Shown: positions 36 to 21,350 of the stretch, in pieces
Position numbering within the stretch: position 1 is the stretch's first letter
How the letters are laid out: each line of letters starts with the position of its first letter
Assembly: GCA_015660915.1 (NCBI GenBank)
Contig: JACTTZ010000003.1
Location: 4,479-68,478 of the forward strand
Origin: Methanomicrobia archaeon
GTDB taxonomy: Archaea > Halobacteriota > Bog-38 > Methanoflorentales > Methanoflorentaceae
Direction: 5' to 3'
Length of the DNA: 64,000 nucleotides
Notes under the pieces: model-generated
The model's input: only the letters and a program-made list of their open reading frames with translations
Database searches by the model: none
Told to the model about the DNA's origin: nothing
Translations under genes and position numbers: made by a program

Positions 36-1403
36 TTGTGGCCGCCCGATATAACCCCTTACATAGAGTTTGATGAATCAAAAAAACAGATTTCACTGAA
101 ATATCTTCACAGTCCTTTTGACATACATATAAACAAGATATGGAAAGCCCGAATCGATGCAAACTATGAAAGCCCTTCAGTGTATGATTGGCAGAAACAG
201 TGGCACAACATCCGAAATAAGTCTCAATTGCTAACATCTGAGTATATAGAAGCATTTGAAGCGTTGATACTTCAAGACCAAAAAAGATTTAAGAGAAAAG
301 CAAATAAGATCGCGAAGCTCACAGAAGCGATTATTTCCTTTTTAGATGCGGACAGAGAATTTCCGACCAAAATTAATACCGCAATTGACTCAGAAAAGTT
401 CGAAAAAGAACTCAAGGACATCTCGGACTGGGCATCTTTTTGGCGCAGGTTTATCACCCAGCAGCCAACGTCAAGTCAAAATCAGATTAGCTATTTTGAT
501 AGACTTAAATTTGCCATCCAAGACACTTGCAGAGCACTGTTGAGTATGCAAATTGCTTACGACAAAATAGTAGAAGCAACCTTCTCTTACTTCAACGTTT
601 CACGTCTCAAAAATCAGGAAAGAGAGACTTACAACTATTTGTTAAAGATCGTAACTTTTCTTGCCCTAGAACCTGACAAAATAGGTAACATAGCCGCTCC
701 TAAATCAGCGATAAATCAATGGTGGGCTCAGCTGGATAAAAAACGAATTGAAAAGATTAGCGATGTTCTCAACCATCTTGAAAAAGAGCTTCATATGGAA
801 TTTATTAGGCCCTGTTATACAGTTCAACGAGGCGGTCTTCGAGAAACTGCGCTGGGCATGAAGGGGAAAAAATTAGAGCAATTTGATGAAGTTTTTCTCA
901 CGTCTTTGATACAAGGTTTGAGTGATTTAGCTGAAATCGAAATTGATCAGTATTTACTTATGTTCATTGATGATCATAACCGCGTGCAACGGTTTGACGC
1001 GATTTTGCTAACTAAAAGCTGTTTAAGCCACGTAAAAGAATTTAAAGGAACAGCGAAAGAATTCGAATGGGATAATTACAACAAGCCGCGTTTTGTTCCT
1101 TTTCAAGAAGACACGTTACGGTCTCTTCCTGAGGTCACATTCAAAATTGATCCAAGTCTGTTGTTGATGAGGAACATTGTGGTTAATATCTGGCATATAA
1201 CAGAAGTGCGCAGAAGGTTATCTCCAAATGTAGAAGTAGAATCCGCGTGGATGAAAGAATTAGTAGACATTCTTCGTTTGGAATTAAACGACTTTTTAGC
1301 CTCCTTAAAAGCTGAAACTTCCCAAGAAACGTGGAAAGCATACAACGATCTAGTAGAAGCTGTCCTTAGCGGAGATGAATCTTATACATCAGGCTTATTC
1401 TAA
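36..1403 (+). CDS. hypothetical protein on AT-rich island cargo; may start upstream of the window
   Basis: 455-aa ORF with no recognisable catalytic motif. Lys/Glu/Ile-rich and markedly AT-rich compared with core genes. Lies outside (left of) the partial tRNA att-like fragment. Confidence 0.4.
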   Translation: MWPPDITPYIEFDESKKQISLKYLHSPFDIHINKIWKARIDANYESPSVYDWQKQWHNIRNKSQLLTSEYIEAFEALILQDQKRFKRKANKIAKLTEAIISFLDADREFPTKINTAIDSEKFEKELKDISDWASFWRRFITQQPTSSQNQISYFDRLKFAIQDTCRALLSMQIAYDKIVEATFSYFNVSRLKNQERETYNYLLKIVTFLALEPDKIGNIAAPKSAINQWWAQLDKKRIEKISDVLNHLEKELHMEFIRPCYTVQRGGLRETALGMKGKKLEQFDEVFLTSLIQGLSDLAEIEIDQYLLMFIDDHNRVQRFDAILLTKSCLSHVKEFKGTAKEFEWDNYNKPRFVPFQEDTLRSLPEVTFKIDPSLLLMRNIVVNIWHITEVRRRLSPNVEVESAWMKELVDILRLELNDFLASLKAETSQETWKAYNDLVEAVLSGDESYTSGLF

Positions 1404-1603
1404 CAATCTCGTCACTATACACAACTTCGATTTTCTTATTGTGGCCGTATCAACATCGAACTTGCGCTGCTATAGTCGGACTCTATTATGTCTTCGAACG
1501 CACTGTCAACGTTAAACTCAAGAGCGACGCTCTAGCTATGTTTTGCAAGACGTCGGAAAAAGCTGAAGATCGAAAGAGAATGTGATTTGGGGTTATAGCT
1601 CGG

Positions 1604-1921
1604 TTAAACGATACCTTTGCAGACGCACCAGATCTCTCTATCTCTAAATTTAGTAGGGTCGAAAGGCTGAGTATCGTGAGTCAAATCGACTCTTTGAAAG
1701 GTGCTTGAGAAAAGCCTTCGAGCCGTTGAGTATTTTCGTTGCGCATACGGATCGGTGTATTTGCCCAGCAGATAATCACGCAGCGCAATCATATTGTCTT
1801 TGCAAAGCTGGCCGCGCGTCAAGTTCCAAAAAGTCTCCGTACACTTATTCATCCACGGAATTGAAGCCTTGCCGATCCTAGCCACACGAAATGCTCTGTA
1901 ACTTTCCAGCTCTTCTTGCAA
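1604..1921 (-). CDS. hypothetical protein; possibly a remnant of an integrase N-terminal (SAM-like core-binding) domain
   Basis: 105-aa ORF next to the tRNA 3' fragment. Weak resemblance (ALRDYL...STARRLF) to N-terminal helices of tyrosine recombinases. Speculative. Confidence 0.2.
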   Translation of the reverse strand: MQEELESYRAFRVARIGKASIPWMNKCTETFWNLTRGQLCKDNMIALRDYLLGKYTDPYAQRKYSTARRLFSSTFQRVDLTHDTQPFDPTKFRDREIWCVCKGIV

Positions 1922-2056
1922 TATTCAAGGGTAATTAAAGCGAGGTTGTTGGATTCGTTTGAGTTGTTTCTGCCTGAAGATTGTAATGGAGATTCCGACT
2001 TTTATTCAGTTTGCAGACTTGCGTAAAAGAAGCTATTTTTGGGCTTTATATCAAAA

Positions 2057-2108
2057 TTAGCGCCCTGTGGAGGCCACGACGCGGGTTCGAATCTCGCCCT
2101 CGGCCTTT
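2057..2108 (+). repeat. partial tRNA gene, 3' half only (variable region + T-arm GCGGG-TTCGAAT-CTCGC + acceptor 3' strand); probable att site of an integrated element
   Basis: Canonical T-stem/T-loop (GGTTCGAATC) followed by an acceptor 3' strand. No matching 5' acceptor (GCCGAGG) or D-arm within about 100 nt upstream. Confidence 0.5.
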
Positions 2109-2912
2109 GATTTTCTGTTTTCGTTAGAGCTATTAGCTTCGTTTGAAAGAAGAAATGATTTTAGTTCGCTAATCTCCGATTCCAATCTATTAAGCCGCTT
2201 AGTCATCTGATTTTGTTCAAGATTTGCACAAAATTTGCCAACGTGGTCGCCAACAGTAATCGCAAACGCAGGTTCTCCTCCAAGTTCCGTTTTGTAAATG
2301 TTGGCTGTCTTTCCGATTAGTCCTTTGAATTCACGTGGAAGTCGGATCACCGGATATGCGTGAGATGGGGTTGCGCTGTGGGCGCCTATCTTGTGCGTGC
2401 AGATCGGTTGCATACATAGCAGAACGCGCCAAACGTGCATAATTATTGTGATTCGCCGCAGTGCGTTTCAAGGGCTTTTTGCAGCATACCTCGTGCTTTC
2501 GCCACCACGCTTCCGAACGGGCCTCAGAAATCAAAGGAAATCGAAAAAAGAGATAACGGCCTAGGAGATAAGGAATGGGCGATAGGAACACGCTATCAGG
2601 CTATAATCTCTAAGAATGCCCCAATGGTTAACCACGACCAAATAATAATAAAAAAATCACAAAGATTATTGTTCCCCAAAATTGACGTACCGCATATGAA
2701 TCTGCGGCTCTTCGTGATTCGAGAAGTCCTGTCACAGCTACCACTAAAAACTCGCATAGCACAGAAAGAATAAGCATAAAGCTGATAGCACGCGCCATGC
2801 CGGTGCTGACGCCGACGAAACCCGCTTACTCTGGTCTAATGAGCCGCCAAATGCACGTACGCCCTACCTTTGTATTGCTACCGATGGTGTCTACTTTTTA
2901 GCGTACTCCCCA

Positions 2913-5723
2913 GTGATTGCGGACGCGACACTCAAAAACGTCACCCAAGATGATGTCGTCCTCAAAACAATCGAAAAAACGGACTGGACAGAGCTGACGT
3001 CGTCTGAAGTTTGTTACTGGCTTGATCGATATTTTCTTCGCCGCCAAGTCCTACCAGTGACAAGTGAACGCGTAATCCACGATTTCGGCACAAAGAGCCA
3101 CGCTTTTCAGACGACAACAAATCTCCTCGCTGCGCTTTGGCAAGAAGTTGAGTCACAGAGTGTCTATCAGGTAATATACAGCAACTGGGAAAAGTACCTT
3201 CGAATAGTTTACGGGAGTGACGTTTCGGATCAACAACTCTTCATTCGGCACACCTACTTGGCAACACTGGCGAAGCTAATGTCGTGGATGCGTATTAGTG
3301 AAAGTGTAAGCCTGCCACATAGCGATGAAATAATCGAAATACTAGAGGGAAGATTTTTCAGAGTCTATGGGATTGACAACTTTTTAGAAGAGGACTTTTT
3401 TTCGTGGCTTACTCACAAAGAAGCTTCAAAAATAGGCGTTAATGCTGTACGCTGGCTGTTTAGCCTGCTGCAGAACTACAATTTGCACGACTTGTCAGAG
3501 GACGTGCTAAAGACATTATATCAAGAATTGGTAGACCCAGAAACGCGGCACGACCTTGGCGAGTTTTATACGCCAGATTGGTTAGCACATCGCATTGTGA
3601 CGAAACTACTTGATGAGAAACCGGACGGGGCCCTCCTTGATCCTGCATGCGGGTCGGGCACTTTTCTTTATCTCGCCATCAGGGAAAAGCGTGAATGGAT
3701 GTCCGATTCTCCTAAAACCCTGCAACACGTATTAGAGTCGGTATATGGAGCAGATATACACCCTCTTGCCGTGATAATTGCTAAAACAAACTATGTCTTA
3801 GCACTAGGCGATCTGCTGAAAAAGCGAAAAAGCACGATTACAATACCCGTTTATCTGGCAGATACAATTCACTTACCTGAATGGGAAACGCAGCATAAAT
3901 TATCAATGGAGTTCTCGAGCTACCGTGTCGAACTAGATGGAGAAAAAATACGACTGCCCGAACCGCTACTTCAAGACCTCACTCTCTACGATCACGCAAT
4001 TGAGCTGGTAAAGGATTTCGCTGAACAGAATAAGGGCAAAGACGTCGAATCTGGACTTTTTCACAATTTTTTAGAGAAACGACATTTCCCAAAAATAGAC
4101 AATGAAATTCTAGTTGAAGCCCTCTTTGATATGGCGACTATCTTAAAACACTTTATCGAAGCGAACCGTGACACGATATGGGCATATATCCTCAAAAACG
4201 CCTATAAACCATTGTTTTTTATGCAAACGTTCGATTTCGTTGTGGGCAATCCGCCGTGGATAGTGTTACGAACCGCAGAGCCTGCGTATCAAGAGTTCTT
4301 AAAACAACAGGTGATGAAGGAGTACAGATTGTTAACCAAACGCGCAGAGCTGATAACCCATCTGGAAGTAGCCGCTCTTTTTTTAGCAAGAGCGGCAGAT
4401 TTGTATTTGAGACCCAGTGGAAAAATAGCCTTTGTAATTACGAGGAGCATATTTAGCAGCGATCAGCACGACGAACTGCGAAGAGGTACCTTCAGATTAA
4501 GCAATGACCCCGAACAACATCTAGCCTTTCAAGAAGTATGGGATTGTGAAGCAGTTACGCCGCTTTTTAATATCCCTGCATGCGTATTAATCGCAGAAAA
4601 AGGCCAAAATCAAACTCTTTATCCAATCAAAGGGCAAATATTAACTGGAAAACTAAGCCAAAAAAATATGTCACTACAGAGCGCGGCAAAAGAACTGCAC
4701 GTTGAAGATACGCGAATATCACTATGTTTTACTGGGACACGCTCTTTCTGGTCTACTCTTGACTGCAAAGAAAAGAAAGCGGTTAGTCCGTACAAAACGA
4801 AATTCATGCAAGGTGCCACAATCATACCTCGCTCTTCATGGATTGTCGAACCTAGCTCACAAAAATATGGATTTGATGAGTTTCGCCCTATGGTAGAAAC
4901 TGCAGGTTATGCCGTAAAGAAAGCAAAAAAGCCGTATAAGGACTTATTTATAAAAGGCAATATTGAAAGTGACTTCCTTTATACTACACTTTATTCGGAA
5001 GATCTGATTCCTTTTGGACATTTTGACTATCGTTTGACCGTTCTACCCGTTGAACCACAGGCAGATCAATACAAACTTGTTGAATCGGAAGAGGCGCGCT
5101 TGCGCGGGTATTCTGACCTAGCACAATGGGTGGAACGCGCAGAAAAAGAATGGACAAAACGGGGCAGTTCAAAAGTGGGGCGAATGAATGCATTGGAACG
5201 GCTAGATTATCGCCACGGGCTGACAAAACAAAATCCCCAAGCACGGTGGCGAGTAATCTACAACACTTCTGGCACTTATTTAACGGCCGCGGTTATTCAA
5301 AGTGCAGAAGTTAAGAACATATTAGGAGAGAACGACACTAGTACAAAAGGATTTGTTGCAGATCACAAAGTCTACTTTTTCGATCTAAACAACAGAAGCG
5401 AAGCATTTTACTTAGCGTCGATTTTGAATGCACCCATCATCGATAGGCTTATAAAGCCAATGCAGAGCCGAGGGTCGTGGGGGCCGCGAGACATTCACAA
5501 AAAAGTTTTTGAGCTTCCTATCCCGCAATTTGACGCCACGAACGCCGAACATCGCAAGTTGAGCGAATTAGGTGAAGGATGTACGGACAAAGTGCAGAAC
5601 TGGGTGTTAAGCGGAGGAAAAGGAAAAATCAAAAGTATAGGAAAGTTACGCTCAATAGTTCGTGAGATGCTGCAAGAAGAACTAAATGAAATCAATCCGA
5701 TTGTTGTGAGAATTTTGCAGTAG
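2913..5723 (+). CDS. gamma-class N6-adenine DNA methyltransferase, type IIG/IIL-like large single-chain R-M/BREX-PglX-like protein
   Basis: Motifs in order GEFYTP (motif X), LDPACGSGTFL (motif I, AdoMet binding), NPPW (motif IV), followed by a C-terminal region of about 480 aa, presumed TRD. The N-terminal 220 aa have no obvious PD-(D/E)xK nuclease motif. Confidence 0.65.
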   Translation: MIADATLKNVTQDDVVLKTIEKTDWTELTSSEVCYWLDRYFLRRQVLPVTSERVIHDFGTKSHAFQTTTNLLAALWQEVESQSVYQVIYSNWEKYLRIVYGSDVSDQQLFIRHTYLATLAKLMSWMRISESVSLPHSDEIIEILEGRFFRVYGIDNFLEEDFFSWLTHKEASKIGVNAVRWLFSLLQNYNLHDLSEDVLKTLYQELVDPETRHDLGEFYTPDWLAHRIVTKLLDEKPDGALLDPACGSGTFLYLAIREKREWMSDSPKTLQHVLESVYGADIHPLAVIIAKTNYVLALGDLLKKRKSTITIPVYLADTIHLPEWETQHKLSMEFSSYRVELDGEKIRLPEPLLQDLTLYDHAIELVKDFAEQNKGKDVESGLFHNFLEKRHFPKIDNEILVEALFDMATILKHFIEANRDTIWAYILKNAYKPLFFMQTFDFVVGNPPWIVLRTAEPAYQEFLKQQVMKEYRLLTKRAELITHLEVAALFLARAADLYLRPSGKIAFVITRSIFSSDQHDELRRGTFRLSNDPEQHLAFQEVWDCEAVTPLFNIPACVLIAEKGQNQTLYPIKGQILTGKLSQKNMSLQSAAKELHVEDTRISLCFTGTRSFWSTLDCKEKKAVSPYKTKFMQGATIIPRSSWIVEPSSQKYGFDEFRPMVETAGYAVKKAKKPYKDLFIKGNIESDFLYTTLYSEDLIPFGHFDYRLTVLPVEPQADQYKLVESEEARLRGYSDLAQWVERAEKEWTKRGSSKVGRMNALERLDYRHGLTKQNPQARWRVIYNTSGTYLTAAVIQSAEVKNILGENDTSTKGFVADHKVYFFDLNNRSEAFYLASILNAPIIDRLIKPMQSRGSWGPRDIHKKVFELPIPQFDATNAEHRKLSELGEGCTDKVQNWVLSGGKGKIKSIGKLRSIVREMLQEELNEINPIVVRILQ

Positions 5724-5873
5724 TACTCTAGTGACGCGATGCAATAAGATGACGATCATTGGCTGGAATCTCGATGATCGCGTTCCATTTGAGGAGCAAA
5801 AGGAGTTTTTATCCTGTTTTTCATAAACACTTTGGAACAAGCGATTGAACTTGATCCGAGACTTAAGTAGAGC

Positions 5874-6785
5874 CTACTCTTCGGTGAAGAAATCAGAATC
5901 GACTTGTTTTATTTCGTATTCGACGACCTTTGACACCCCGATGCCGTGATCGATCATAAGCTGTGCCAACATATCTCCATTGATAAGAACAACCTTATCC
6001 TCTATTTGCGAGGCATAGTCCGTTGCTTCACGTGAAAAATCAGCCGTAGTAATGAATACGCCTCTGCGTGCGCGCTGACCGTGGAGCGCCCCAACGAACT
6101 TCTGAATCTCCGGTCTGCCGACCGTCGCTTCCCACCTCTTAGCTTGCACGTAGACCACGCCTAACCCCAATGGGTCTTCCTTGATAATGCCATCTATCCC
6201 TTCGTCGCCGCTCTTGCCTAGCGCCTGTCCGGCATCTTTGATTGAGCCGCCATACCCCATCTCAACAAGTAGTTTAACCACTAGTCTCTCAAAAAAGCTA
6301 GGAGAACAGACTTTCAGTTTATCGAGCAGCTCTCTAGCCAAGTTCAGCCTCAGCTCCTGATAGGCATTTTCCATCACCTCAACGGGCGTCTGATCAGGGA
6401 CTTTTGCAGATTCGGCTTCGCCTTCTGTTCTATCTTCTTTTTTCCGCTGCAAGAACCCCACGAATCGCGGATATTGCTTTAAAAACTTGACGTCTATTGT
6501 CTTGGGACTCGCCTTAAGCGCATTTACGCCGTCTTCCGTTATTTTAAAAAAAGAGCGCCTCGTAGAGTCGACCAGCCCTGCTTTTTTTAAGTAAAACAAC
6601 CCCCATCGGACTCTGTTATCAAAAACTTGCTCGTAGCCGCTTGGCAATAGTTCTCTCCTTTCCTGAGTTGATACTTCAAAAACCGAAGCGACGTAGTCGT
6701 ATGCGTCGCTTATCGCGTGCTCTTCCTCATCAGAAGCGTATTGTAAGAGTGGGAGCATTGCTTGTTGGTATTTGGGAATAGCCAT
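5874..6785 (-). CDS. mrr: Mrr-like type IV (modification-dependent) restriction endonuclease
   Basis: N-terminal Mrr_N winged helix (AIPKYQQAMLPLLQ...) plus C-terminal Mrr_cat-like region (GIDGII...VYVQAKRW). Likely true start at the internal Met MAIPKY preceded by GAGGTG. The ORF-track start at 6917 adds a 44-aa Arg-rich extension. Confidence 0.65.
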   Translation of the reverse strand: MAIPKYQQAMLPLLQYASDEEEHAISDAYDYVASVFEVSTQERRELLPSGYEQVFDNRVRWGLFYLKKAGLVDSTRRSFFKITEDGVNALKASPKTIDVKFLKQYPRFVGFLQRKKEDRTEGEAESAKVPDQTPVEVMENAYQELRLNLARELLDKLKVCSPSFFERLVVKLLVEMGYGGSIKDAGQALGKSGDEGIDGIIKEDPLGLGVVYVQAKRWEATVGRPEIQKFVGALHGQRARRGVFITTADFSREATDYASQIEDKVVLINGDMLAQLMIDHGIGVSKVVEYEIKQVDSDFFTEE

Positions 6786-6959
6786 AGCACCTCTTCTCAA
6801 ACATCGTCTCGAAGTATTCTCTGTTCGATATCTCCTAGCTAGATGCAGTAAAACCGTGCGACTGTTAAGACCCCTCAAACTCACAGATTTATTGTGGCGG
6901 TTCTTAAATCGCCGCAAACCAGTTGCTTAGCTGACTTGCTCAGTCTTCTTTGCTTACGT

Positions 6960-7430
6960 TTATTTTTTTTGGCTTGTTTTTTTAGCTTGTGAGATTATCC
7001 GATCGTAATCGCTTTGCGGAATCTGAACCACAGCTTTACCTCTAATAGGGCCAGTCCAGTATGTCTTGTTCGGTAAGAAAGAAAGTCTCAGTATTAAAGG
7101 CTTAAAATCGATGGGTGGTTCAAATACCCTTACAGCTTCCAACCGTAATCTCAACGGAAAAGTTTCATTTGGCGTATTCGGAGGTGTAACGAACAGCTTC
7201 TTGCTGTCTTCGAAGACTGTTGAAGCGATCTCATATTGTGCAACTATCTTCGGTCTTAACGTTTCGCCTGCGCTAATTTCACCTTTCACATAAACTAAGC
7301 ATTGGTCGCCTTTCTTTACTCTGGAGAGCGCATTCTTGTATCGTGCAGAAGCCCCGAGAATATTTGTCTTCTTTGTGATTGTCCAGTTGTCAGAGTTTGT
7401 TACATAGATCCAGTAAGCCATAGCCATCAA
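6960..7430 (-). CDS. EVE (PUA-like) domain protein, putative modified-base reader
   Basis: Starts AYWIYVTNSDNW...; size about 150 aa; PUA-like beta-barrel signature typical of EVE/ASCH proteins. Sits directly beside Mrr. Confidence 0.5.
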   Translation of the reverse strand: MMAMAYWIYVTNSDNWTITKKTNILGASARYKNALSRVKKGDQCLVYVKGEISAGETLRPKIVAQYEIASTVFEDSKKLFVTPPNTPNETFPLRLRLEAVRVFEPPIDFKPLILRLSFLPNKTYWTGPIRGKAVVQIPQSDYDRIISQAKKTSQKK

Positions 7431-7569
7431 ACCGAACCTATGCCCCCGCCGCTATAAAAAAGGCGCGTTGTGCACTTACTTGGGATGCTTGCACTGTTCA
7501 ACGACGAGAGTACCCAGCCAAGTAAAACTCGGCGCACTTGAACACGTAAAAAAAAGAATCGCTTGAATA

Positions 7570-7605
7570 CCCGAGTTTTTCCCGAGTTTTTCCCGAGTTC
7601 TTAGC
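7570..7605. repeat. tandem repeat (cccgagtttttc) x about 3
   Basis: Direct tandem copies are visible in the sequence. Confidence 0.7.
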
Positions 7606-7840
7606 TCCAAAAGTTCCTGTCGTAACCCGTCGGATACCCCCCTCATCCGCTGCTTTCGGGTCGATCGAACGTCTCGTGGCAAGGTCAAATAGATATTAAA
7701 AGCTCGAAATGTTTGCTCGGTTTCGCCATCCAACGCTTCCAAGGCTCGGGATTGTGAGGCTTAGGATTGACACCTACGCGAAGGGCTTTTACATCCATTA
7801 TGTTCTCGAAAATCTCTACAAAGAATTGCCCAAATCCCCG

Positions 7841-7920
7841 TGTTTTTACCGTGTTTTTTCCCTACTTTTACCGACCGTTTGCCGCTGCTTGACCGACACT
7901 TTTTTACCACCTGTTTACCC
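7841..7920. repeat. iteron-like cluster of TTTTACC motifs (at least 4 copies); candidate replication origin of the integrated element
   Basis: Repeated gtgtttttacc / cttttacc / ttttttacc / tgtttaccc within 80 bp in a non-coding stretch near the primase-helicase gene. Confidence 0.35.
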
Positions 7921-8185
7921 TTCCTAAAGACGTTCTGTATGATTCCAAGATACACTTTTCACGTTCGTTCAGCTCAAGGGCAAAGATTCGATCAGAAAAA
8001 GCTTGTGCCCGCTTGACCCTATCGTATCTCGCACTATACCGTTCAAGTTGGCGCAAGGAAAGAGAGAGGCTGTAGGTTTGCCGCAGCTTCTGAAGTGATC
8101 GGGAAGGGCCCATGTCTCGATAAAGGCAAAAAAGCTCATACGCCTTGCTGCGTTCATTGGGTAAACGATCCCATGCTTCGGTCAT
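7904..8185 (-). CDS. hypothetical small protein
   Basis: 93-aa ORF in the island, no motif. Confidence 0.25.
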   Translation of the reverse strand: MTEAWDRLPNERSKAYELFCLYRDMGPSRSLQKLRQTYSLSLSLRQLERYSARYDRVKRAQAFSDRIFALELNEREKCILESYRTSLGRVNRW

Positions 8186-8203
8186 TCAAACGATTCCTTT
8201 ATC

Positions 8204-8449
8204 TCAAGGAGGGCAGCACATAATCGATCTTCTGACGCGGCGAATCTTAATATACCCTGACCGAGCCAATCTGTGAACCCTGTAGTAGAGTTCCTGATAG
8301 GCGGTGTCATAGAACTCTTTGTTGAGATCGGCAAGCGGTACGCACTCTAGATTGTGACCAATAGAAAGCCCCAGAGTGAAACGGGATCTCCTGCAAATCC
8401 GAGCTATGATTTGCTCATCGAGTTCATTGATTTTGTTTTTGTTATTCAC
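8204..8449 (-). CDS. hypothetical small protein (overlaps the primase-helicase start)
   Basis: 81-aa ORF with an 8-nt overlap with the upstream gene, suggesting an operon. Confidence 0.3.
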   Translation of the reverse strand: MNNKNKINELDEQIIARICRRSRFTLGLSIGHNLECVPLADLNKEFYDTAYQELYYRVHRLARSGYIKIRRVRRSIMCCPP

Positions 8450-10580
8450 TTTCGTCCCCTTCTAACAAGAGCGGTTTTCCGCCGGTTAGTTTCAAAAAGA
8501 TCGATGCTGCCGGGCCATTTCCGTTCACGAGCTCGCTGAAGCGGCGCTCGAGGATAATGCGCGACTGTCTATCATCGGCCGAGATGTTATTTTCTTCACA
8601 ATACATCGCGACTGTGAAATTGCAGAGATATTCCGGATCGCGGGGTTCCTTGTAATCGCCATCGGCCAACCATCCGAGCCTTTCGCTTACGTAGCCGTCG
8701 AAGTGTGCCTCCCGGTCGTGGTCGTCTGGTACATGCTTACCACGCGAGCAGTCGGCTATGAGCGTCTGCACTTCCGGATCAGTCTCGGCTAACTTTTTAT
8801 AGAACTGCTCGACGGGGTAGTCGCGCAACCAAGGCTTATCTGCCTTAATGGTCTTGCTCAATTCGGCAGCAAACTCGTTAGTTGTCATGTCGATGGGCCC
8901 AGACCGCGCCTTCTTGAACCCGTTTAGTATCTGCTTGACGTCTTCGACGAGTTCTTTTTCATGTTTTTCACGCTCGCCATTCACCTGAGGGCCTGAAGGC
9001 AATGAACCCATTTTGACTAACTTTTCATGATACCCCTCAGCCGTCATGTAACGAATGTCAAAACCACCTTCATAGCCTTCAGCATTCAGCTCAGCCTTCA
9101 GCGGTGCGGCAACCTCATCGTCATACTCGCCAATATCCCGTAACCGAATCCCTGCCCGCAGATTGCCGCTTTCTTTATGTATGCTCTTAAATCCGAGTTT
9201 CGTAAGATATGAGTAAAAACTCGTCGGCGTCGAGACGTTATGACGCTCCTCGGCGGTCGCGACGTTTCGAAATCGCTCATACAAGGCTTTAGACGTCGAT
9301 TCGGCGCCCGCTTCGACTATGCACTCACTCTCGATAAACGCGGCGAGCGGATTCATAGATTTTTGGTAGTCTTTCCGCGCAGCGTTGACCGAATCCGGCG
9401 GCATAAGGCCGTAGTCTTGCCAATCATAGCACCCCTGCACTAACCACGCAAAAATAGCCTTCTGCGCGTTCTCATCCTCTAAGAGAAATTCTTTGATTTT
9501 CGGGTCGCACTCCTCGAGAGCGATCGGGTTTAAGAACTGCACGATAAAGAACCGATTAAACGACGCATCATCGTCGAAGTCTAATTTCGGCAAGAAATTC
9601 GTCTCGATATAGAATTTTGTGCGCGGATCTATCTTGCGCTGCCTTTTTTCAAACAGGCCTCGGGCACTCTGCGGGTTCCCGCTCGTAACAGCCTTGAGAA
9701 ACGAATCATTGAAGACCATACCCCGAGGCACTTCGCTACACTGCGCGGCACGCACGCCCTCGAGACTAACAAGGTCTGCCCGCGCTCCTCCGGGTTTTTG
9801 TATCGCCTTTGCGAATGTCGATATGTTGACCGGGGCAGCATAATCGCCTAGGGTTTTAAAGATCGCATCTAAAAGCGTTGACTTACGTGCGTTCGCTTCA
9901 CCGTAGAGAACGAACAGGGCCTTGTCTCGATTGATCGCTGTCAATCCTGACCCACAAGCCCGCTGTAAAAACGCGCCTTGCTCGAGTGACAACACTTCGA
10001 TAAGCCGTTCGTACCATTCCGAGCTTACCGTCTCGGGTTCATAGGGCACGGCTGCTATTTTGGTTACCAAGTCGTTGCGATCCGGGTCGCGCAATTCCCG
10101 CGCATTTAAGTCAAGGGTTCCGTTTTGACAGTTGATGAGCCAAGGGTTGGCGTCAAAGTCTTTCGCCATGACTGCGATGCGCGGGTCTGACTGTGCAAGT
10201 TGAATCATCGCGTTTATGCGAAAATTGGAATCACTCTGATACGCCCAGTTCGTCAACCGCTTTTGTGCCGCTTTCCGTTCTTTCGGATCATCCTCATCGA
10301 TGAAACTCGCCTCTGCGTGTATGAGTTTGACCGTTTTTTTGGCCAGTTCTCGAATTTTGAGTGTGACGTCTCGAGGCCATCGCGAGTCATCCCATATGAA
10401 CCACTCACCAATTTCAGCGCAATAACGGATATCATCACCGTACAGAGCAATAAGTCGAAGCGCATTGCCGCCGTCTGTCAAAGGATAACCACACACTACC
10501 CGCACGTCGTTATGTGTGCTGGTTTTGAGGTCAAGCTCAGACAATGTATGCTCACGTATCCCGGGTTGTGATCCGCTCAC
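8442..10580 (-). CDS. plasmid/virus-type replication protein: primase-like N-terminal domain plus D5/SF3-helicase-like NTPase (P4/COG3378 family)
   Basis: N-terminal LTDGGNALRL motif (P4-type primase family). Central Walker-A-like YGEANARKSTLLD with downstream D5_N-like region. 712 aa, typical of MGE primase-helicases. Confidence 0.6.
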   Translation of the reverse strand: MSGSQPGIREHTLSELDLKTSTHNDVRVVCGYPLTDGGNALRLIALYGDDIRYCAEIGEWFIWDDSRWPRDVTLKIRELAKKTVKLIHAEASFIDEDDPKERKAAQKRLTNWAYQSDSNFRINAMIQLAQSDPRIAVMAKDFDANPWLINCQNGTLDLNARELRDPDRNDLVTKIAAVPYEPETVSSEWYERLIEVLSLEQGAFLQRACGSGLTAINRDKALFVLYGEANARKSTLLDAIFKTLGDYAAPVNISTFAKAIQKPGGARADLVSLEGVRAAQCSEVPRGMVFNDSFLKAVTSGNPQSARGLFEKRQRKIDPRTKFYIETNFLPKLDFDDDASFNRFFIVQFLNPIALEECDPKIKEFLLEDENAQKAIFAWLVQGCYDWQDYGLMPPDSVNAARKDYQKSMNPLAAFIESECIVEAGAESTSKALYERFRNVATAEERHNVSTPTSFYSYLTKLGFKSIHKESGNLRAGIRLRDIGEYDDEVAAPLKAELNAEGYEGGFDIRYMTAEGYHEKLVKMGSLPSGPQVNGEREKHEKELVEDVKQILNGFKKARSGPIDMTTNEFAAELSKTIKADKPWLRDYPVEQFYKKLAETDPEVQTLIADCSRGKHVPDDHDREAHFDGYVSERLGWLADGDYKEPRDPEYLCNFTVAMYCEENNISADDRQSRIILERRFSELVNGNGPAASIFLKLTGGKPLLLEGDESE

Positions 10581-11119
10581 GAACGACCTCCGTCGTCGCC
10601 GTCGCCCGAGAGCGAACTCGACTGAGGGTCGTTGCCAAAGCCCAGCAGCTTTCGGAGTTCTTGCATCTCCTTTGCTTTCGTATACTCCACATCAATCGCG
10701 CGCACTTGCGCTATGGTCTCATCAGCGTCTTGGTCACCGAGCGGCTTACGTCGTTGGATCCTGCGGAACAGCGCTAAAAGCAGCCATAACGGTACTTCGT
10801 CAGCGTAGCAATCGTTACGCCACTCAGCCCCAGCGCCGTCTTGATAGTTGATTAGGGCCCGTTCATCGCCGCGTTCAGTCAAATACCAGCTCACATTCTT
10901 ATGCTGCGTGCCAAAGCTCTCGCGCACTCCCTGACGCACGAATATCTGATATTCGTAGAGCAAGTGCTCTGCCGCGTCGTATAGGTCGTTGGACAGCGTG
11001 GCCGTCTCGCCACGTCTCAGCTCTGTCGTGACTTCCTTTAAGCTTCTGTGTGTCTCGCTCTCGTAGTCATCGGCGGGCGTGACATAGCCGCGATTCGGGT
11101 CAAAATATGAACTCGTCAT
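10577..11119 (-). CDS. hypothetical protein
   Basis: ORF translationally coupled (ATGA overlap) to a duplicated 3'-end remnant. Likely ATG start at MTSSYFDP. Confidence 0.35.
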   Translation of the reverse strand: MTSSYFDPNRGYVTPADDYESETHRSLKEVTTELRRGETATLSNDLYDAAEHLLYEYQIFVRQGVRESFGTQHKNVSWYLTERGDERALINYQDGAGAEWRNDCYADEVPLWLLLALFRRIQRRKPLGDQDADETIAQVRAIDVEYTKAKEMQELRKLLGFGNDPQSSSLSGDGDDGGRS

Positions 11120-11169
11120 GCCCTCGCCTCCCACAACCGCTCCATTCTGAATATGAAGCTGTCTAGGTC
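11117..11169. repeat. about 53-bp direct repeat copy 1 (gene-junction cassette: 3' end ...F(I/F)(F/G)RMERLWEAR(A/S)* + ATGA start overlap)
   Basis: About 90% identical to 12004-12055. Confidence 0.8.
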
Positions 11170-11183
11170 GTCGTGAATGTCGG

Positions 11184-12005
11184 TCATGCTCGATGCTCCC
11201 CGTTCGCTATTGCCCATAATTTTTCTCTGTCAACACGTTCAGCCCGAAGTACGCCATAAAAAACAGACGTGTCGTAAAACTCGAAAAGAGCAGCTTCGTA
11301 AAGCTCCCGGAGTGTATAAGGAGGAAGGGCGTCGAGTTCCACCTGCATGAGCTGACCGTAGTCTCGAATGAAGCCGGCTGCACGTGAATCGCCTTTTTTA
11401 CCCGGGTTTACCGGTAAATTATATTCACTTACCTGATCCTCATTGAGCGCAATGCGTTGCACATGGTCAAAGCAGCTGCACCGCTTTTTGAAGTCTCTCA
11501 ATATGTCGACGCCGCTCGGATCGAAATCACCAGCATAAATGAGCACGGCTTGACGGTCATTGTTCGTAACATCCTCGATGATCACATCGACATACGTTTG
11601 CGACGAGTACCCACGAAGCGGGGCGATCGCAACACCGTATGTTTCAAACCACTGCTTCAACTGCGGCACCATGCCGTACTTTTCAACGCCGAGATAGACC
11701 GAGTACTCCTGCCTTTCATCGCGGTTACGGCAGTAGCTCCTAGTGAGCGATTTCAAAGCATCTTGCGGGCTACTGAATCCGCCAAAGCGGTGAATATCGC
11801 GTGTCTGGTCAACTAGCTGCGGAAACTGTCCGTTTCGACGAAGAGCCGCGGTGACCCTACTGAGTCTTTTATACGCGTACTCACTGTTCGGTATCGCGCC
11901 TTCAACGACCAAGCGATAGAACAGTTGTCGGAGAGAGACGCCGGTGTCATAAGAACGCACTATTTCAGCAGCTCGGGTGATGACGCGAGGCCATGAAATG
12001 CTCAT
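11184..12005 (-). CDS. Spo11/Topo VI-A-like 'Mini-A'-type protein (winged helix with Tyr + Toprim)
   Basis: wH motif SLRQLFYRLV (5Y-CAP-like R..Y). Toprim glutamate LGVEKYGMV and DxD motif IYAGDFDPSGVDI. 273 aa, shorter than Topo VI-A. Confidence 0.45.
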   Translation of the reverse strand: MSISWPRVITRAAEIVRSYDTGVSLRQLFYRLVVEGAIPNSEYAYKRLSRVTAALRRNGQFPQLVDQTRDIHRFGGFSSPQDALKSLTRSYCRNRDERQEYSVYLGVEKYGMVPQLKQWFETYGVAIAPLRGYSSQTYVDVIIEDVTNNDRQAVLIYAGDFDPSGVDILRDFKKRCSCFDHVQRIALNEDQVSEYNLPVNPGKKGDSRAAGFIRDYGQLMQVELDALPPYTLRELYEAALFEFYDTSVFYGVLRAERVDREKLWAIANGEHRA

Positions 12006-12226
12006 GACCTCGCCTCCCACAACCGCTCCATTCTGCCTATGAAGCTTTCTAGGTCATAAACGAAGGGTGCTAGTACGAGGTGGTATTCGTCGTCTTCGGT
12101 TTCGACGCGTTCAAGCTCGTAACACAGGTCGCCGTAGAGCTCCTGTGCCCCTATCAAAATCAAAAGAGGGCGCTCTGCATCAAAGCGCTTATCAAAGCGC
12201 AGCCCGTCACTGCTCACCGCGTGCAC
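12002..12226 (-). CDS. hypothetical small protein
   Basis: 74-aa ORF; its stop overlaps the downstream start (ATGA). Its last 16 codons are duplicated at 11120-11170. Confidence 0.35.
   Translation of the reverse strand: MHAVSSDGLRFDKRFDAERPLLILIGAQELYGDLCYELERVETEDDEYHLVLAPFVYDLESFIGRMERLWEARS
12004..12055. repeat. direct repeat copy 2 (see 11117-11169)
   Basis: Covers the 3' end of gene 12002-12226 and the start of 11184-12005. Confidence 0.8.
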
Positions 12227-12714
12227 GAGAAACCTCCGTGTGTCTCTTTTGGAGTCTTAGTCGCCAATGGCACATCGGCTTCCATGTTCTTGCGCTCAGA
12301 ACCACGGCACGTTATTGCGCCTCTACTTCGCCCAGCGAATGGTATACAGCTTCTGTCAAGGTCACGCGGCAATGAGCAAAGGCAGTTAGGTACGCCTTTG
12401 ACCTTCTTTTGGGGATCGGTCAACTTCATGCGTTTGCATGAACGATCCGGATTAAAACTGCGTTCAAAGTCTAAGGGACTCTTTTCAGACTCATCCGGCT
12501 GAAGCCTCATTAGAGGAGCCGGCAAGTTTTTCGAAATTTTGTTTCTTCTAAACATGTTTCTCACTCCAAAAAGCCCAATAAATGGAGAGAGAAACGACCT
12601 TATTTCAAGCGGATATTCTTTATAAAAAGAAACCGCAATTACGTACTACCTAATCTAATCAATTAGGTATGGAGAAACAAGGAATGAGAGGATAGATCGG
12701 GATCTACTCTTACC

Positions 12715-12737
12715 GGCGGAGATCATAACTCTCCGCC
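12715..12737. terminator. perfect 8-bp stem / 7-nt loop hairpin GGCGGAGA-TCATAAC-TCTCCGCC followed by a T-rich tract
   Basis: Inverted repeat seen directly in an intergenic region. Confidence 0.3.
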
Positions 12738-12785
12738 ATCTCTCCATTTTACAGTGCTCTGATTGTTTTTGTTTTGTCTTTCCTC

Positions 12786-13418
12786 CTACGGGTTCGCATT
12801 CTCTGTCGGTCGACGTGTCTTATGCAATGAGAACTCCACAGCCACCGAATCTTCTGCACCTTTCCGAGGCTTTTCCCCACGCTCCACCCGATCAAAAAGT
12901 GCCATAATGTCGCCGTCTTGATCCTTGTAAAGCACCCACACATATGTTAGTGACAAGGGTTCATCGATCGGAAGGCCATCCTCCACCTTCTGAACCGTCG
13001 CAATCCATTTTGAAACGACAGAATTGCAGACATAGCACCAGCTTGATCCAGATTTTAATTGGCTGTACGAAAAACCGATAAGGGGGTCGCTGCTGTGAAT
13101 ACCGTCAGCTTGTACACTAAGACCGAGGCTCTTAGCCACGTCGTCAGCGTGGAGAGAATCCCATACGATTCTGATGAACCTGATGGTAGATTTCCGCACA
13201 GGCCAACGCATAGGATCATGTGTAAGCACCCAAAAAGCAACGATTTCGCCGACCGAATACTCAGGCCAATTGCTTGGCCCGCCTCGACCTTTTCCTTCGC
13301 TCTTGTGGTAACGACGAGGCGCGGTAATGACCCCTTCGTGGGCAAGCTTTCTGATTGTGCTGGAAGCTAAACCAACTCCGTATTTGTGTAAATGAGCCTG
13401 AAGTTCGTCGACTTGCAC
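12786..13418 (-). CDS. hypothetical protein with N-terminal HTH-like segment
   Basis: LASSTIRKLAHEGVI helix-turn-helix-like stretch; the rest is unknown. Confidence 0.3.
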   Translation of the reverse strand: MQVDELQAHLHKYGVGLASSTIRKLAHEGVITAPRRYHKSEGKGRGGPSNWPEYSVGEIVAFWVLTHDPMRWPVRKSTIRFIRIVWDSLHADDVAKSLGLSVQADGIHSSDPLIGFSYSQLKSGSSWCYVCNSVVSKWIATVQKVEDGLPIDEPLSLTYVWVLYKDQDGDIMALFDRVERGEKPRKGAEDSVAVEFSLHKTRRPTENANP

Positions 13419-13836: not shown

Positions 13837-15393
13837 TCATCCTTGTCGCTGCTGTTTTTCTCTAAATGCCTGCACAAGTTTGGCTGAGCGTTCCCTGTCG
13901 CCTTTAATTGCTTCTTGCGACACCGCCTTAGCAGGCTCTATTACGTTTTTGTTTATCGATTTGACCAGATCGGCCGTATCTTCATACCAATAGGTATCGA
14001 GAATCATCGTTTCAAGTTTCTTTCGCAAGCCAATCAGCACCATATGCTCTCCCTTCGCTTTTTCTGAGGCGACTCGGATGGGCAGTATAGGCACAGCAGC
14101 GCCCGTATCAGCGATGTGTTGCACCTCGATAGGCACCATCTCAGGGTCAGTAAAGTCAGCGATAACGAACTGCGCCATACGTGCAAGAGTAGATACTGTT
14201 TCGATAAACGTTTGGCTCTCCGGTTTTTCAAAGTCGAATACTACAGGCACATAGTCATGATGACGAAGTTCGTCTCGGACTGCGTCGAGCGTCGGCTTTT
14301 GCTCATCAGTGAAGCGGCCGAGGAGAAGCACGACTTTTGAGGTCATAATATCAATAACATTTCGCAGCTTTTCGTATTTCGTTAGCAAATAGATGAACTG
14401 CGCGACCTCAAGGTCGTCAACGGTGATCACGGGCTCTCGTTCGTATATATTGCTGATGTTCAAGTTTGACTGATCTTTTGGCTTACCTTGAAGGTTCCAC
14501 ACCGAGCTACCGTACACGGCACATCCAGCAAAAATGGCATCCGCGATGGTCGTTTCTACAAAAATTGCCCTCGTGAGATTGGCGTCTGAAAGGTCGGTAC
14601 CTGTCAGATCCGCATTTGAAAGATCGGCAGAATAGAGGGTAGCGTGAGAGAGGTTAGCGTGGGAGAGGACGGCTTTGTAGAGGTGGGCTTCTCGCAAGGT
14701 GGCGCCAGAGAGGTTGGCGTCGGTGAGCTTGGCCTTATAGAGGTGGGCGCGGGTGAGGTCGGCTAACGAGAGGTCGGCGCCCCTCAGATCCGCATTTGAA
14801 AGATATGCGTCGACAAGAATAGCGCCAGAGAGGTTAGCGCCGGAGAGGTGGGCAAAGGAGAGGTGGGCCTCGCTGAGATTAGGCCTCACCTCAGAGTACT
14901 TATCACGCCAACTGTTCCACTCGTCAACGCCTTGTTTCAGAATTTCAAGGTGCGATTCATTTGCCGTAGAAGATCTCACTGCGAGCGTCAGGCCGGCGTC
15001 GGTGAGGTCTGCACCCGTCAGATCCGCATTTGTAATGTTAGCGTTAGAGAGGTCGGCGCCGCTGAGGTCGGCGTTAGAGAGGTCGGCGCCAGAGAGCTCG
15101 GCGTTAGAGAGGTCGGCGCCAGAGAGGTCGGCGCCAGAGAGGTTAGCGTCGGTGAGCTCGGCGTGGGAGAGGTTAGCGCCAGAGAGGTTAGCGCCAGAGA
15201 GGTCGGCGTCGGTGAGGTCGGCGTAGAAGAGGTCGGCTCCGATGAGGTTGGCTTCGTAGAGGTCGGCTTCTGGGAGGTGGGCGCCGCTAAGATCGGGCCT
15301 CACGTCATGGTACTCTTCACGCCAACTGTTCCAGACTTTAAAGCCTTGCTTTAGGATTTCGAGATGTGATTCATTGACCATCGAAGATCTCAC
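13837..15393 (-). CDS. pentapeptide-repeat protein with duplicated N-terminal module and a C-terminal non-repeat alpha/beta domain
   Basis: Long runs of A(D/N)LSGA(N/D)L pentapeptides. Two copies of the module ESHLEILKQG..WNSWR..Y.(D/E)VRP(D/N)LS.AHL. The C-terminal 190 aa are non-repetitive (KVVLLLGRFTDEQ...VPVVFDFEKPE...FVIADFTDPE). Confidence 0.7.
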   Translation of the reverse strand: MRSSMVNESHLEILKQGFKVWNSWREEYHDVRPDLSGAHLPEADLYEANLIGADLFYADLTDADLSGANLSGANLSHAELTDANLSGADLSGADLSNAELSGADLSNADLSGADLSNANITNADLTGADLTDAGLTLAVRSSTANESHLEILKQGVDEWNSWRDKYSEVRPNLSEAHLSFAHLSGANLSGAILVDAYLSNADLRGADLSLADLTRAHLYKAKLTDANLSGATLREAHLYKAVLSHANLSHATLYSADLSNADLTGTDLSDANLTRAIFVETTIADAIFAGCAVYGSSVWNLQGKPKDQSNLNISNIYEREPVITVDDLEVAQFIYLLTKYEKLRNVIDIMTSKVVLLLGRFTDEQKPTLDAVRDELRHHDYVPVVFDFEKPESQTFIETVSTLARMAQFVIADFTDPEMVPIEVQHIADTGAAVPILPIRVASEKAKGEHMVLIGLRKKLETMILDTYWYEDTADLVKSINKNVIEPAKAVSQEAIKGDRERSAKLVQAFREKQQRQG

Positions 15394-15581: not shown

Positions 15582-15720
15582 TTATCTGGAAATTATGAGC
15601 TTAACGTTATTCCAATATTGCATATACACATCATATGCGTGCTCAGGCAGCGGATGCTTATAGTGCTTCCAATCGATACCGCTGACGCCGTGCGTCGTAC
15701 ACGCTCTGACCGACAGAATC
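15582..15720 (-). pseudogene. tyrosine integrase C-terminal remnant (...THGVSGIDWKHYKHPLPEHAYDVYMQYWNNVKL*), no start codon
   Basis: Strong protein/DNA similarity to the C-terminus of the intact integrase 20218-21045. Confidence 0.5.
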
Positions 15721-16030: not shown

Positions 16031-16264
16031 TTAGTTGTCTAGGCGGGTATTGTGCCAATATTTTATAAACCCGTAATAAACGTGCTCAGGCAAAGGATGC
16101 TTGTCATGCTTCCAATCTATACCGCTCACGCCATGCGTCATTATGTAAGCACGATTTGACTGATCCCAGCCTATTGCGTCACCGCCCTGCTCGCAAAACT
16201 TGCGCAGATCGCCAAGCACGAAATGCCCCTTAAACTGTGACATCGGAATCTTCTGCCGTTTCAT
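16031..16264 (-). pseudogene. tyrosine integrase C-terminal remnant (box II + catalytic Tyr region)
   Basis: GDLRKFCEQ...WDQSN..Y.(L/M)THGVSGIDWKH.KHPLPEHVY matches the intact integrase C-terminus. Confidence 0.6.
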
Positions 16265-16448
16265 CTATATCCCCAAAAAGCCATGTCGGAAAACAGCTTC
16301 ATCGTCTTTTTTTCTTCGATCGACTCCCCGCCAAAGATGGCGTATTGGAAAGGATTATTCGTTAAGTTCAACAAGAGTCGGTTGCGAACCTTCATGCTGA
16401 ACTGGCAAACCACCAACGACAAGGATCTTTGCCTTAGACGACGCATCT

Positions 16449-18406: not shown

Positions 18407-18609
18407 GAAATGTTCTTCTTAGATCGTATATAGATGCCGAACCTGTGCTCAGGCAGACAGATGTTTACAGCGCGGTAAGGGTTCCAATATGGAGCGTTTC
18501 GCGCTTCTTTTTTCTTGGTTGCACGCCTACGCTATATCCGCACGTGCTTTCATCTAAGTTATCGGTCAGGGCACGGATCGTCTCACGCTAACCGCACATC
18601 CGCCCAATA

Positions 18610-21271: not shown

Positions 21272-21350
21272 GACAGGGCTCCATGATAGGCCGCTACACT
21301 ACCCGGGCTTGCGCAAAAATGGTGGTTGCACAGAGCACAACTTACTAGGC
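21272..21350. repeat. about 80-bp imperfect direct repeat copy A (gacagggctc..tgataggccgctac...gcttgcgcaa...tgcacagagc)
   Basis: About 80% identical to 22414-22490; the pair flanks the 21390-22169 gene. Confidence 0.7.

Follow-up and report, generated by a model that had tools for sequence, protein, structure and literature searches.

The 64,000-nucleotide (nt) stretch of archaeal DNA analyzed here (from contig JACTTZ010000003.1 of a Methanomicrobia archaeon; hereafter, the window) contains a defense island that is best explained as a mosaic of three independent pieces: a decapitated type IIG restriction–modification (RM) gene, a cassette in which a gene for an EVE-domain protein is followed by one for an Mrr-family endonuclease (EVE→Mrr), and a gene for a STAND nucleoside triphosphatase (NTPase). 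We assign this explanation a probability of about 0.8. An earlier reading of the letters alone (the sequence-only reading) had described a defense cluster of three open reading frames (ORFs), at 2913–5723 on the forward strand and at 5874–6917 and 6960–7430 on the reverse strand. All three were found, and their Pfam, PADLOC and NCBIfam families agree with that description. The parts all belong to known families and, as read from the sequence, make up an ordinary mosaic. What is added is the truncation of a gene whose full-length allele is still living, the EVE–Mrr cassette with the relic of another EVE gene beside it, and an extension of the EVE–RM association to type IIG-like and Mrr enzymes.

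In the proposed course of events, recombination with a breakpoint at nt 2823 cost the type IIG gene its promoter and the first ~119 codons, including a putative nuclease motif, and translation, if any, would begin at an internal valine codon, GTG 2913. A portable type IV cassette, with a TATA box before EVE and a Shine–Dalgarno (SD)-like GGTG before Mrr, took the place of an earlier EVE gene, of which little is left and which ran convergently to the type IIG gene. Mrr would cut DNA carrying foreign modifications, the EVE protein would read modified bases, and the Cap4-nuclease/STAND NTPase would act as a separate gene of the abortive-infection type.

The value of this explanation is mainly corrective: what looks like, and has been annotated as, a large stand-alone methyltransferase (MTase) is a decapitated type IIG enzyme, and sister strains still carry the intact allele. 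The locus provides a clean natural example of how solitary MTases can arise from single-chain RM genes, and it illustrates the swapping of RM, type IV and EVE cassettes at archaeal hotspots. The EVE/IIG-like and EVE/Mrr pairs are tractable for testing the function of the reader protein.

Table 1. Features of the defense island and its surroundings, with positions in the window.
Position	Strand	Feature	Basis or remark
36–1403	+	C-terminal 455 residues of a 1317-residue Cap4-nuclease/nSTAND NTPase protein	Gene cut by window edge
1604–1921	−	Integrase-like gene, N-terminal fragment	tblastn: residues 2–63 37% identical to N-terminus of the 275-residue integrase-like ORF
2060–2108	+	tRNA-like 3' fragment	Anticodon-loop-like CTGTGGA, T-arm GCGGGTTCGAATCTCGC and acceptor strand; read from sequence
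2823–2912	+	Breakpoint (2823) and in-frame, start-less relic of type IIG codons ~120–148	blastn, tblastn
2913–5723	+	5'-truncated type IIG/IIL RM gene, 936 residues	Helical linker, gamma-class N6-adenine MTase, target recognition domain (TRD), C-terminal region; putative nuclease part gone
5732–5771	−	Relic of older EVE gene: last ~13 codons and stop	Convergent with the type IIG gene; aligned with locus L005
5861–7467	−	EVE→Mrr two-gene cassette, one conserved block	80% identical over 1621 nt to loci L091/L092/L095
5874–6785	−	Mrr-family type IV restriction endonuclease, 303 residues, intact	Pfam, PADLOC
6960–7427	−	Standalone EVE (UPF0310) modified-base-reader protein, 155 residues, intact	Pfam, NCBIfam, PDB
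7449–7461	−	TTTTTTATA box, likely archaeal promoter of the EVE→Mrr unit	~22–34 nt upstream of EVE ATG
7904–13418	−	Replication module: terminase-small-like protein (93 residues), 81-residue protein, D5_N/P4-family primase (712 residues), and proteins of 185, 278 and 210 residues	
20218–21045	−	Integrase-like 275-residue ORF near right-hand repeat	PHROG integrase phrog_216, E = 3.4e-6
21266–21411		147-bp repeat: 5' part of tRNA-Asp and upstream region	Marks the right edge of the ~25-kb variable/integrated region in which the cluster lies

Anatomy of the truncated type IIG gene

The 936-residue protein carries the motifs GEFYTP (residues 216–221; nt 3558–3575), DPACGSGTFL (residues 243–252; nt 3639–3668) and NPPW (residues 446–449; nt 4248–4259), which follow the motif order X – I (FxGxG) – IV (NPPY/W) of gamma-class N6-adenine MTases, and it matches the Pfam families N6_Mtase, Eco57I and MmeI_Mtase, all above cut-off. 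The PADLOC type IIG model (REase_MTase_IIG, PDLC03630) matched with E = 2.6e-94, aligning residues 139–903 with positions 289–1060 of the 1100-position profile. Since the alignment begins at profile position 289, some 150 N-terminal residues are absent from the protein. The C-terminal region with the TRD is contiguous with the MTase, and is collinear to the last residue with relatives of 1080–1100 amino acids (aa). Nearly all of the listed homologues (53–61% identity; 119 of 120 differ from the query) are 1030–1130 aa long, compared to 936 aa here; four shorter entries among the 120 have 877–927 aa. The 90%-identity cluster of the window protein includes two full-length alleles of 1084 aa from sister populations. 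One of them, P0122, is 92% identical to the window protein across its residues 149–1084, the 936 residues that the two share; the other, P0131, is closer, with 61 of the 936 residues differing.

The point of truncation is sharply defined. In tblastn searches with the full-length homologues, homology to the window starts at nt 2820–2826, corresponding to their residues ~117–129 (residue 117–120 at 2826), in the frame of the ORF. At the DNA level (blastn), window 2823–5771 aligned at 91% identity with 10354–13304 of a locus that carries a full-length allele (L005), starting 353 nt inside the full-length gene, and the DNA to the left of 2823 is unrelated. A stop codon at 2757 marks where the open frame begins; no ATG, GTG or TTG occurs in it until GTG 2913, which is an internal valine codon, that of a conserved “YSPV”; the ORF thereby starts at residue 149 of its relatives. 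No ORF, whether separate or frameshifted, that could encode the missing N-terminus was found in the window or within a further 7 kb upstream (contig L001), 71 kb in total. As judged from these alignments, the promoter and the first ~119 codons of the type IIG gene were lost at the breakpoint, and the 936-aa ORF represents the 3' 86% of a DrdV/MmeI-like type IIG RM gene and not a native architecture. Because ~148 N-terminal residues of the full-length relatives are missing, its product is predicted to be incapable of restricting or cleaving DNA: the putative endonuclease domain that lies N-terminally in the same polypeptide in the relatives is absent from the window gene.

The sequence-only reading had seen no nuclease motif in the N-terminus of the 936-aa protein, as we confirmed. 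Its description of the protein as type IIG-like was likewise upheld by the PADLOC match, but a complete type IIG or PglX-like enzyme it is not, being truncated and having a 92%-identical full-length allele. In profile searches, the PADLOC type IIG model covers the C-terminal region as far as position 1060 of 1100; no matches to MmeI_N, MmeI_TRD or MmeI_C were obtained in Pfam for the family, and the lost domain has no Pfam match. Two other assignments were rejected. BREX PglX matched far less well than the type IIG model (PADLOC, E = 1e-11; NCBIfam, 37 bits compared to a cut-off of 400), and no BREX domains (PglZ, BrxC, BrxL partners) were found among the neighboring genes. MADS MAD2 matched weakly as well; for both, the match is limited to the MTase core, and partner genes are absent.

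A family alignment showed that the lost segment contains nearly invariant residues (G83, D86, L88–N91, E95, F96 and E97) that form the motif G-x2-D-N-L-F-G-N-x3-E-F-E, i.e., D-x8-E-x-E, a putative nuclease motif. The match of a full-length relative to the PADLOC type IIG profile begins at position 49, compared to 289 for the window protein. The AlphaFold2 (AF2) model of a full-length relative (predicted local distance difference test score, pLDDT, of 68) had its best fold match in DrdV (PDB 7lo5; E = 6e-11, full-length alignment), followed by BrxX/PglX, the type ISP enzymes LlaBIII and LlaGI, MmeI, BsaXI and BpuSI. In this model, the 936-aa ORF begins within a β-strand of the lost domain. The window gene is like the type IIG/IIL enzymes (DrdV, MmeI, BpuSI; PDLC03630) in its order of helical linker, gamma-class N6-adenine MTase and C-terminal target recognition, but ~148 N-terminal residues shared by all full-length relatives are missing from it, and its family has the D-x8-E-x-E motif rather than a clear D…ExK motif at the N-terminus.

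In 46 of the 80 bacterial loci with full-length homologues (L011–L090), an ORF of ~97 aa lies directly upstream of the enzyme gene (e.g., L071, 4793–5086). Its sole domain is UPF0758_N, the N-terminal helix-hairpin-helix of RadC (Pfam, E = 6.9e-17). This conserved small partner of the bacterial loci is absent from the archaeal type IIG alleles.

The EVE–Mrr cassette and the older EVE gene

Disruption of the Mrr and EVE genes, which would have undermined the restriction module proposed by the sequence-only reading, was not found: both are full-length and intact. Mrr matches the winged-helix domain Mrr_N (Pfam, 98 bits) and the PD-(D/E)xK-type catalytic domain Mrr_cat (125 bits; profile positions 3–115 of 115) without interruption, as well as the PADLOC type IV model mREase_IV (E = 1.4e-85; profile positions 1–316 of 317). 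Its catalytic-core motif, GIDG … VQAKRW, is encoded at nt 6132–6209, and the identical protein was called on 58 contigs. The gene almost certainly starts at ATG 6785, giving 303 aa, rather than spanning the 347-aa ORF 5874–6917, because Mrr_N opens at residue 50 of that ORF, because a GGTG (6788–6791) sits 3–6 nt upstream of the ATG, and because gene callers picked ATG 6785 in four metagenomes. For EVE, the start was corrected to 7427 from the 7430 of the listed ORF. The protein matches Pfam EVE (E = 3.8e-17; profile positions 1–144 of 145) and NCBIfam PRK00809 (157 bits compared to a cut-off of 139), and among solved structures it is closest to the archaeal UPF0310 proteins MJECL36 (PDB 2p5d; E = 1.4e-40, residues 3–145) and PH1033 (1wmm).

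Being intact and co-directional, Mrr and EVE are consistent with a single transcription unit, for which the TTTTTTATA box is the likely promoter. Homology of EVE loci from other contexts reaches 7466–7486 and so spans this box. Farther upstream, a run of eight T residues (7548–7555) probably terminates the preceding primase operon. A 49-nt stretch upstream of the EVE promoter (7552–7600) contains three GGGAAAAACTC repeats, followed by the T run. This stretch is 94% identical to a site 350 nt upstream of an unrelated MmeI-family gene in a sister strain (L176), perhaps representing a terminator, regulatory site or recombination site common to both. In the three loci that share the conserved cassette block (L091/L092/L095), the Mrr gene downstream of EVE is frameshifted, and a type I RM system directly adjoins the two genes. 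Another locus (L099) has the order Mrr (79–90% identical, frameshifted), EVE and type IIG fragments.

The full-length type IIG alleles occupy a chromosomal locus in the order RMMBL hydrolase (−), type IIG (+), EVE (−) (L005, L175), in which the EVE stop lies 8–9 nt past the type IIG stop. Window 5601–5771 aligns with L005 13133–13304, a segment that covers the L005 EVE gene at its 3' end (stop at 13264), and IPANDRHLIAS.. in the window relic corresponds to IPASDYNLIVPS in L005. The match to the L005 arrangement continues for 48 nt past the MTase stop; unrelated DNA and then the 5861–7467 block come next. Given this relic and the conservation of the block elsewhere, an older EVE gene, oriented convergently to the type IIG gene, has been largely replaced by the EVE→Mrr cassette. 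The adjacency of MTase and Mrr is thus a product of cassette exchange, and is by itself no sign of a designed three-gene system. The sequence-only reading had taken this adjacency as meaningful; with an EVE relic right after the MTase stop, cassette replacement accounts for it instead.

In the sister populations, the chromosomal site is a hotspot at which the RMMBL hydrolase and EVE genes flank varying RM cargo (L005 13264–19400; L093; L096; L175). The cargo belongs to the type IIG family of the window gene in L005 and L175, whereas L093 has an HSDR_N-type type IIG gene with a TaqI_C protein. Beside EVE, L005 also carries a type II restriction endonuclease/MTase pair and HerA–NurA.

To describe the surroundings of EVE more widely, we sampled 80 metagenomic loci with EVE homologues at 41–82% identity, of which 46 were longer than 5 kb. 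An N6_Mtase/Eco57I gene, in many cases one that also encodes an HSDR_N_2 nuclease domain and is thereby type IIG-like, was present within three genes of EVE in 31 of the 80 loci, and was its immediate downstream neighbor in 18 of these. By inspection, nearly all loci of the close EVE clade (at least 54% identity, with usable flanks) have an N6_Mtase/Eco57I neighbor. Other recurrent neighbors were HsdS, SNF2 helicase, DUF499, a COG1743-like MTase, UvrD and the RMMBL gene. The orientation of EVE relative to the RM genes was mixed, with co-directional, convergent and divergent arrangements all observed. A tblastn search of bacterial genomes found neither EVE nor Mrr near full-length type IIG homologues (0 of 80 loci), which rules out type IIG–EVE or type IIG–Mrr adjacency as a general rule and shows that the pairing is lineage-specific, a trait of the archaeal EVE clade and not of the type IIG family. 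The two archaeal loci with type IIG and EVE share ancestry at the DNA level.

These contexts qualify the Mrr/EVE module of the sequence-only reading. The two genes are intact, adjacent and co-directional and recur as a cassette at the DNA level, but EVE is not specifically a partner of Mrr, since N6-adenine RM enzymes are the more frequent neighbors of its homologues. Bell, Wolf and Koonin (2020; PMC7641849) described standalone EVE proteins beside type I RM systems, “mostly found in archaea”, and also beside a COG1743/DUF499/SNF2-nuclease system, and proposed that EVE guides the nuclease to modified DNA. The terms “Mrr” and “type IIG” do not occur in the text of that paper, and the recurrent pairing of standalone EVE proteins with Mrr and type IIG-like enzymes is a modest extension of the association with type I RM systems known from archaea. 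The window protein belongs to the same family as MJECL36 and PH1033, and both published contexts were recovered here as well; unlike in those contexts, it and most of its close homologues adjoin a type IIG-like fused nuclease–MTase or Mrr. The window Mrr is like E. coli-type Mrr in being full-length, with the two domains Mrr_N and Mrr_cat and the GIDG … VQAKRW motif, and differs in being archaeal, in lacking a close solved structure and in being preceded by a standalone EVE in the same cassette.

Fate of the remnant and alternative explanations

We considered what has become of the truncated type IIG gene, and found the odds roughly equal between a solitary N6-methyladenine (m6A) MTase and a young, perhaps very young, pseudogene. 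As a domesticated solitary MTase (a “Trojan horse”), the nuclease-less copy would have been kept by the integrated element to methylate its own and the host's DNA at sites that are the same as or similar to those of the full-length enzyme, thereby gaining protection on meeting cells with the full-length allele at the chromosomal RMMBL–EVE hotspot. We hold this to be possible, at somewhat less than an even chance. The full-length alleles (P0122 and P0131) are indeed present at the chromosomal locus of sister populations, and the remnant is located in mobile-element DNA. Every MTase motif has been kept, the 936 codons are uninterrupted by stop or frameshift, and the ratio of nonsynonymous to synonymous substitution rates (dN/dS) between the truncated and full-length alleles is 0.12 (dS 0.31). 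Orphan MTases with a protective role are an established theme in mobile elements (PMC12707154), and a nuclease-deletion mutant of LlaGI, a related single-chain enzyme, folds and binds DNA (PDB 5ffj). Like the orphan MTases of mobile elements, which protect by self-methylation, the window MTase has no cognate nuclease and lies in integrated-element DNA. However, it would derive from decapitation of a type IIG enzyme rather than from a dedicated MTase, its activity is putative, and the expression signals of a working gene were not found. An intact Mrr in the same cell would be hazardous if it recognized the product of the remnant.

Alternatively, the decapitation may be incidental to the insertions, deletions and cassette exchange through which the island was built or, in a variant of this scenario, the type IIG gene may have been counter-selected when Mrr arrived. 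The remnant would then be a silent young pseudogene, and the cell would be defended only by EVE–Mrr and the STAND protein. We place this, too, tentatively and a little below even odds. The promoter, start codon and ~119 codons are gone at a sharp breakpoint with integrase and tRNA fragments at its flank, and there is neither a TATA box at a workable distance nor an SD-like sequence before GTG 2913. These missing signals, together with a start inside a β-strand, weaken the case for an active solitary MTase. Frameshifted RM and Mrr genes are common in related EVE loci (L091, L099), so that cassette decay is frequent in the lineage. When the codon changes were polarized with the two full-length alleles, the window branch had 24 nonsynonymous and 41 synonymous changes, compared to 19:63 and 25:95 on the other branches. 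The nonsynonymous ratio on the truncated branch is thus modestly raised, about twofold over the full-length branches (Fisher's test, p = 0.02 against both alleles, 44:158; p = 0.10 against the closest alone). Moreover, 49 of the 79 nonsynonymous differences fall in the C-terminal 40% of the protein, which probably includes the TRD, and the specificity of the remnant may therefore differ from that of the full-length allele, a point that also counts against the protective role. On the other hand, there is no surplus of derived amino acid changes when the bacterial relatives are used as outgroup (26 in the truncated lineage compared to 34 in the full-length lineage, and 5 compared to 6 at conserved sites), and a neutral phase, if that were what the raised ratio reflects, would already predict one to three disabling mutations, by a rough estimate from dN/dS and the codon counts.

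Several points weigh against the explanation that we prefer, a mosaic with a decapitated type IIG gene. The AF2 model of the isolated lost domain has low confidence at the motif (residues 58–94) and no significant match in the PDB. In an hhalign comparison with MmeI_N (E = 0.15), the motifs were only roughly in register, with the Asp one position out, and the canonical Lys of PD-(D/E)xK nucleases was not located in the lost domain. Its nuclease identity is accordingly described here as putative. The intact 2.8-kb ORF and its dN/dS of 0.12 weaken the case for a dead relic, although the signals expected before GTG 2913 are missing. Nor can selection after the truncation be measured, owing to the near-identity of the contigs that carry the truncated allele: the six that were fetched are 100% identical over at least the first 12.4 kb, save for one mismatch in L002 and a 30-nt indel in L003. 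The one apparent protein variant, P0121, is one residue apart from P0001, yet its contigs equal the window at the DNA level, which suggests that the variant is merely a different translation of the GTG start. Finally, the operon structure of EVE and Mrr is predicted from sequence signals only.

A different explanation would make the three genes an integrated system, in which the MTase writes a mark, the EVE protein reads it, and Mrr is steered to, or kept off, the marked DNA. In its favor, the genes lie side by side, Mrr and N6-adenine RM enzymes are recurrent neighbors of EVE homologues, and Bell et al. (2020, PMC7641849) proposed that standalone EVE proteins guide restriction enzymes encoded nearby to modified DNA. 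However, the trio of truncated type IIG, Mrr and EVE was seen at a single clonal locus only, where it formed when the EVE–Mrr block displaced the older EVE. The full-length type IIG gene occurs with EVE and without Mrr (L005, L175), EVE–Mrr occurs without this type IIG gene (L091), neither EVE nor Mrr lies near the bacterial full-length homologues, and the MTase is convergent with EVE and Mrr and lacks expression signals. We therefore regard an integrated system as very improbable. Only slightly better, and still very unlikely, is the idea that the UPF0310-type EVE proteins of Halobacteriota are portable readers that serve any adjacent restriction enzyme, be it type IIG, type I or Mrr, with the remnant as writer. 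If it were true, the decapitated type IIG enzyme would write a mark that EVE reads, either keeping Mrr off self DNA or directing it, and the locus would be a natural writer–reader–nuclease triad built through cassette exchange.

The upstream STAND gene and the mobile-element setting

The ORF at 36–1403, for which the sequence-only reading had envisaged a role as a further component of the cluster, proved to be the tail of an independent gene. Its TTG at 36 is no real start, but an artefact of the window edge. Four contigs (L001–L004) continue leftwards past the start of the window, and in L001 the same DNA holds a gene for a 1317-aa protein at 4538–8491, whose end lies 1510 nt upstream of the MTase ORF, the same spacing as seen here. 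The protein matches Pfam Cap4_nuclease (48.5 bits compared to a cut-off of 26.2) and, below the cut-off of 34, nSTAND_NTPase5 (30.7 bits). None of the PADLOC Avs models matched, and the only PADLOC match was a weak one to an LmuA-type nuclease (E = 1e-6). The protein resembles the Avs-like STAND NTPases in its order of Cap4-type nuclease, putative STAND NTPase and long C-terminal region, and differs from them in lacking an Avs match. The family assignments point to a separate STAND-type (abortive-infection-type) defense gene, of which the 455-aa part would be the sensor end. The GC content of 36–1403 is 0.385, compared to 0.529 in the host part of the window.

The cluster as a whole sits in a variable, integration-prone region of the Halobacteriota genome, among low-GC debris of integrated elements. 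The host assignment rests on HypE (MGA3358748.1), which GenBank lists, like the integrase-like protein of the window, as a metagenome-assembled “Halobacteriota archaeon” protein. The GC content of the defense genes is 0.39–0.48, compared to 0.53 in the host part. Fragments of paralogous integrase copies include the N-terminal one to the left of the type IIG gene and four C-terminal ones (15597–15695, 16037–16312, 18589–18726 and 19567–19641). This set resembles the split integrase genes of SSV-type archaeal integration and, by that analogy, suggests repeated integration events. The tRNA-like 3' fragment is probably an old attachment (att) relic. Its 25-nt T-arm/acceptor pattern occurs once in the window (0 expected by chance), and it is overlapped by a 118-aa ORF (2057–2413, −). 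No complete tRNA was called here by ARAGORN or Rfam, and Rfam found no RNA family in 1300–8300. The replication module matched Pfam D5_N (E = 1e-33), TIGR01613, a PHROG primase (E = 4e-90), phrog_6247 and phrog_6299.

The right-hand 147-bp repeat consists of the 5' 44 nt of tRNA-Asp and ~100 nt of upstream sequence. It is 98% identical to L001 3302–3447, which overlaps a tRNA-Asp gene (3272–3345) ~3.7 kb to the left of the window start, the two copies being 25 kb apart. Repeats of the 5' rather than the 3' half of a tRNA are unusual for att sites. A part of ~66 nt is present a third time (22404–22479), and the 1.07 kb between the last two copies (21340–22413, with a TrmB-like ORF) is missing in a sister strain. 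The sister strain L176 is collinear with the window from 22414 rightwards at 98.7% identity and shares the integrase-proximal 2.5 kb; its cargo differs beyond 18852 and includes a genuine MmeI-family enzyme. A simple att-bounded prophage was ruled out by the several integrase fragments and the nested repeats, and the borders of the region are approximate only.

Several smaller features were observed in the same region. A 56-aa ORF (2628–2798, −), encoding a peptide like one with two transmembrane helices, starts 25 nt from the truncation breakpoint. A segment of ~60 nt (2514–2574) is 84–87% identical to sequences in three EVE loci (L096, L098 and L108), which also carry homologues of the 118-aa ORF. 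A 518-aa pentapeptide-repeat protein (13837–15393, −) is encoded by DNA with 15-nt periodic repeats and is the site of the 30-nt indel between metagenomes (L003); pentapeptide proteins adjoin EVE in L093 as well. Elsewhere in the window, two tRNA genes of 84 and 96 nt (52388–52471 and 59372–59469) were given impossible four-base anticodons by ARAGORN, yet have full-model Rfam tRNA matches, and are probably intron-containing archaeal tRNAs.

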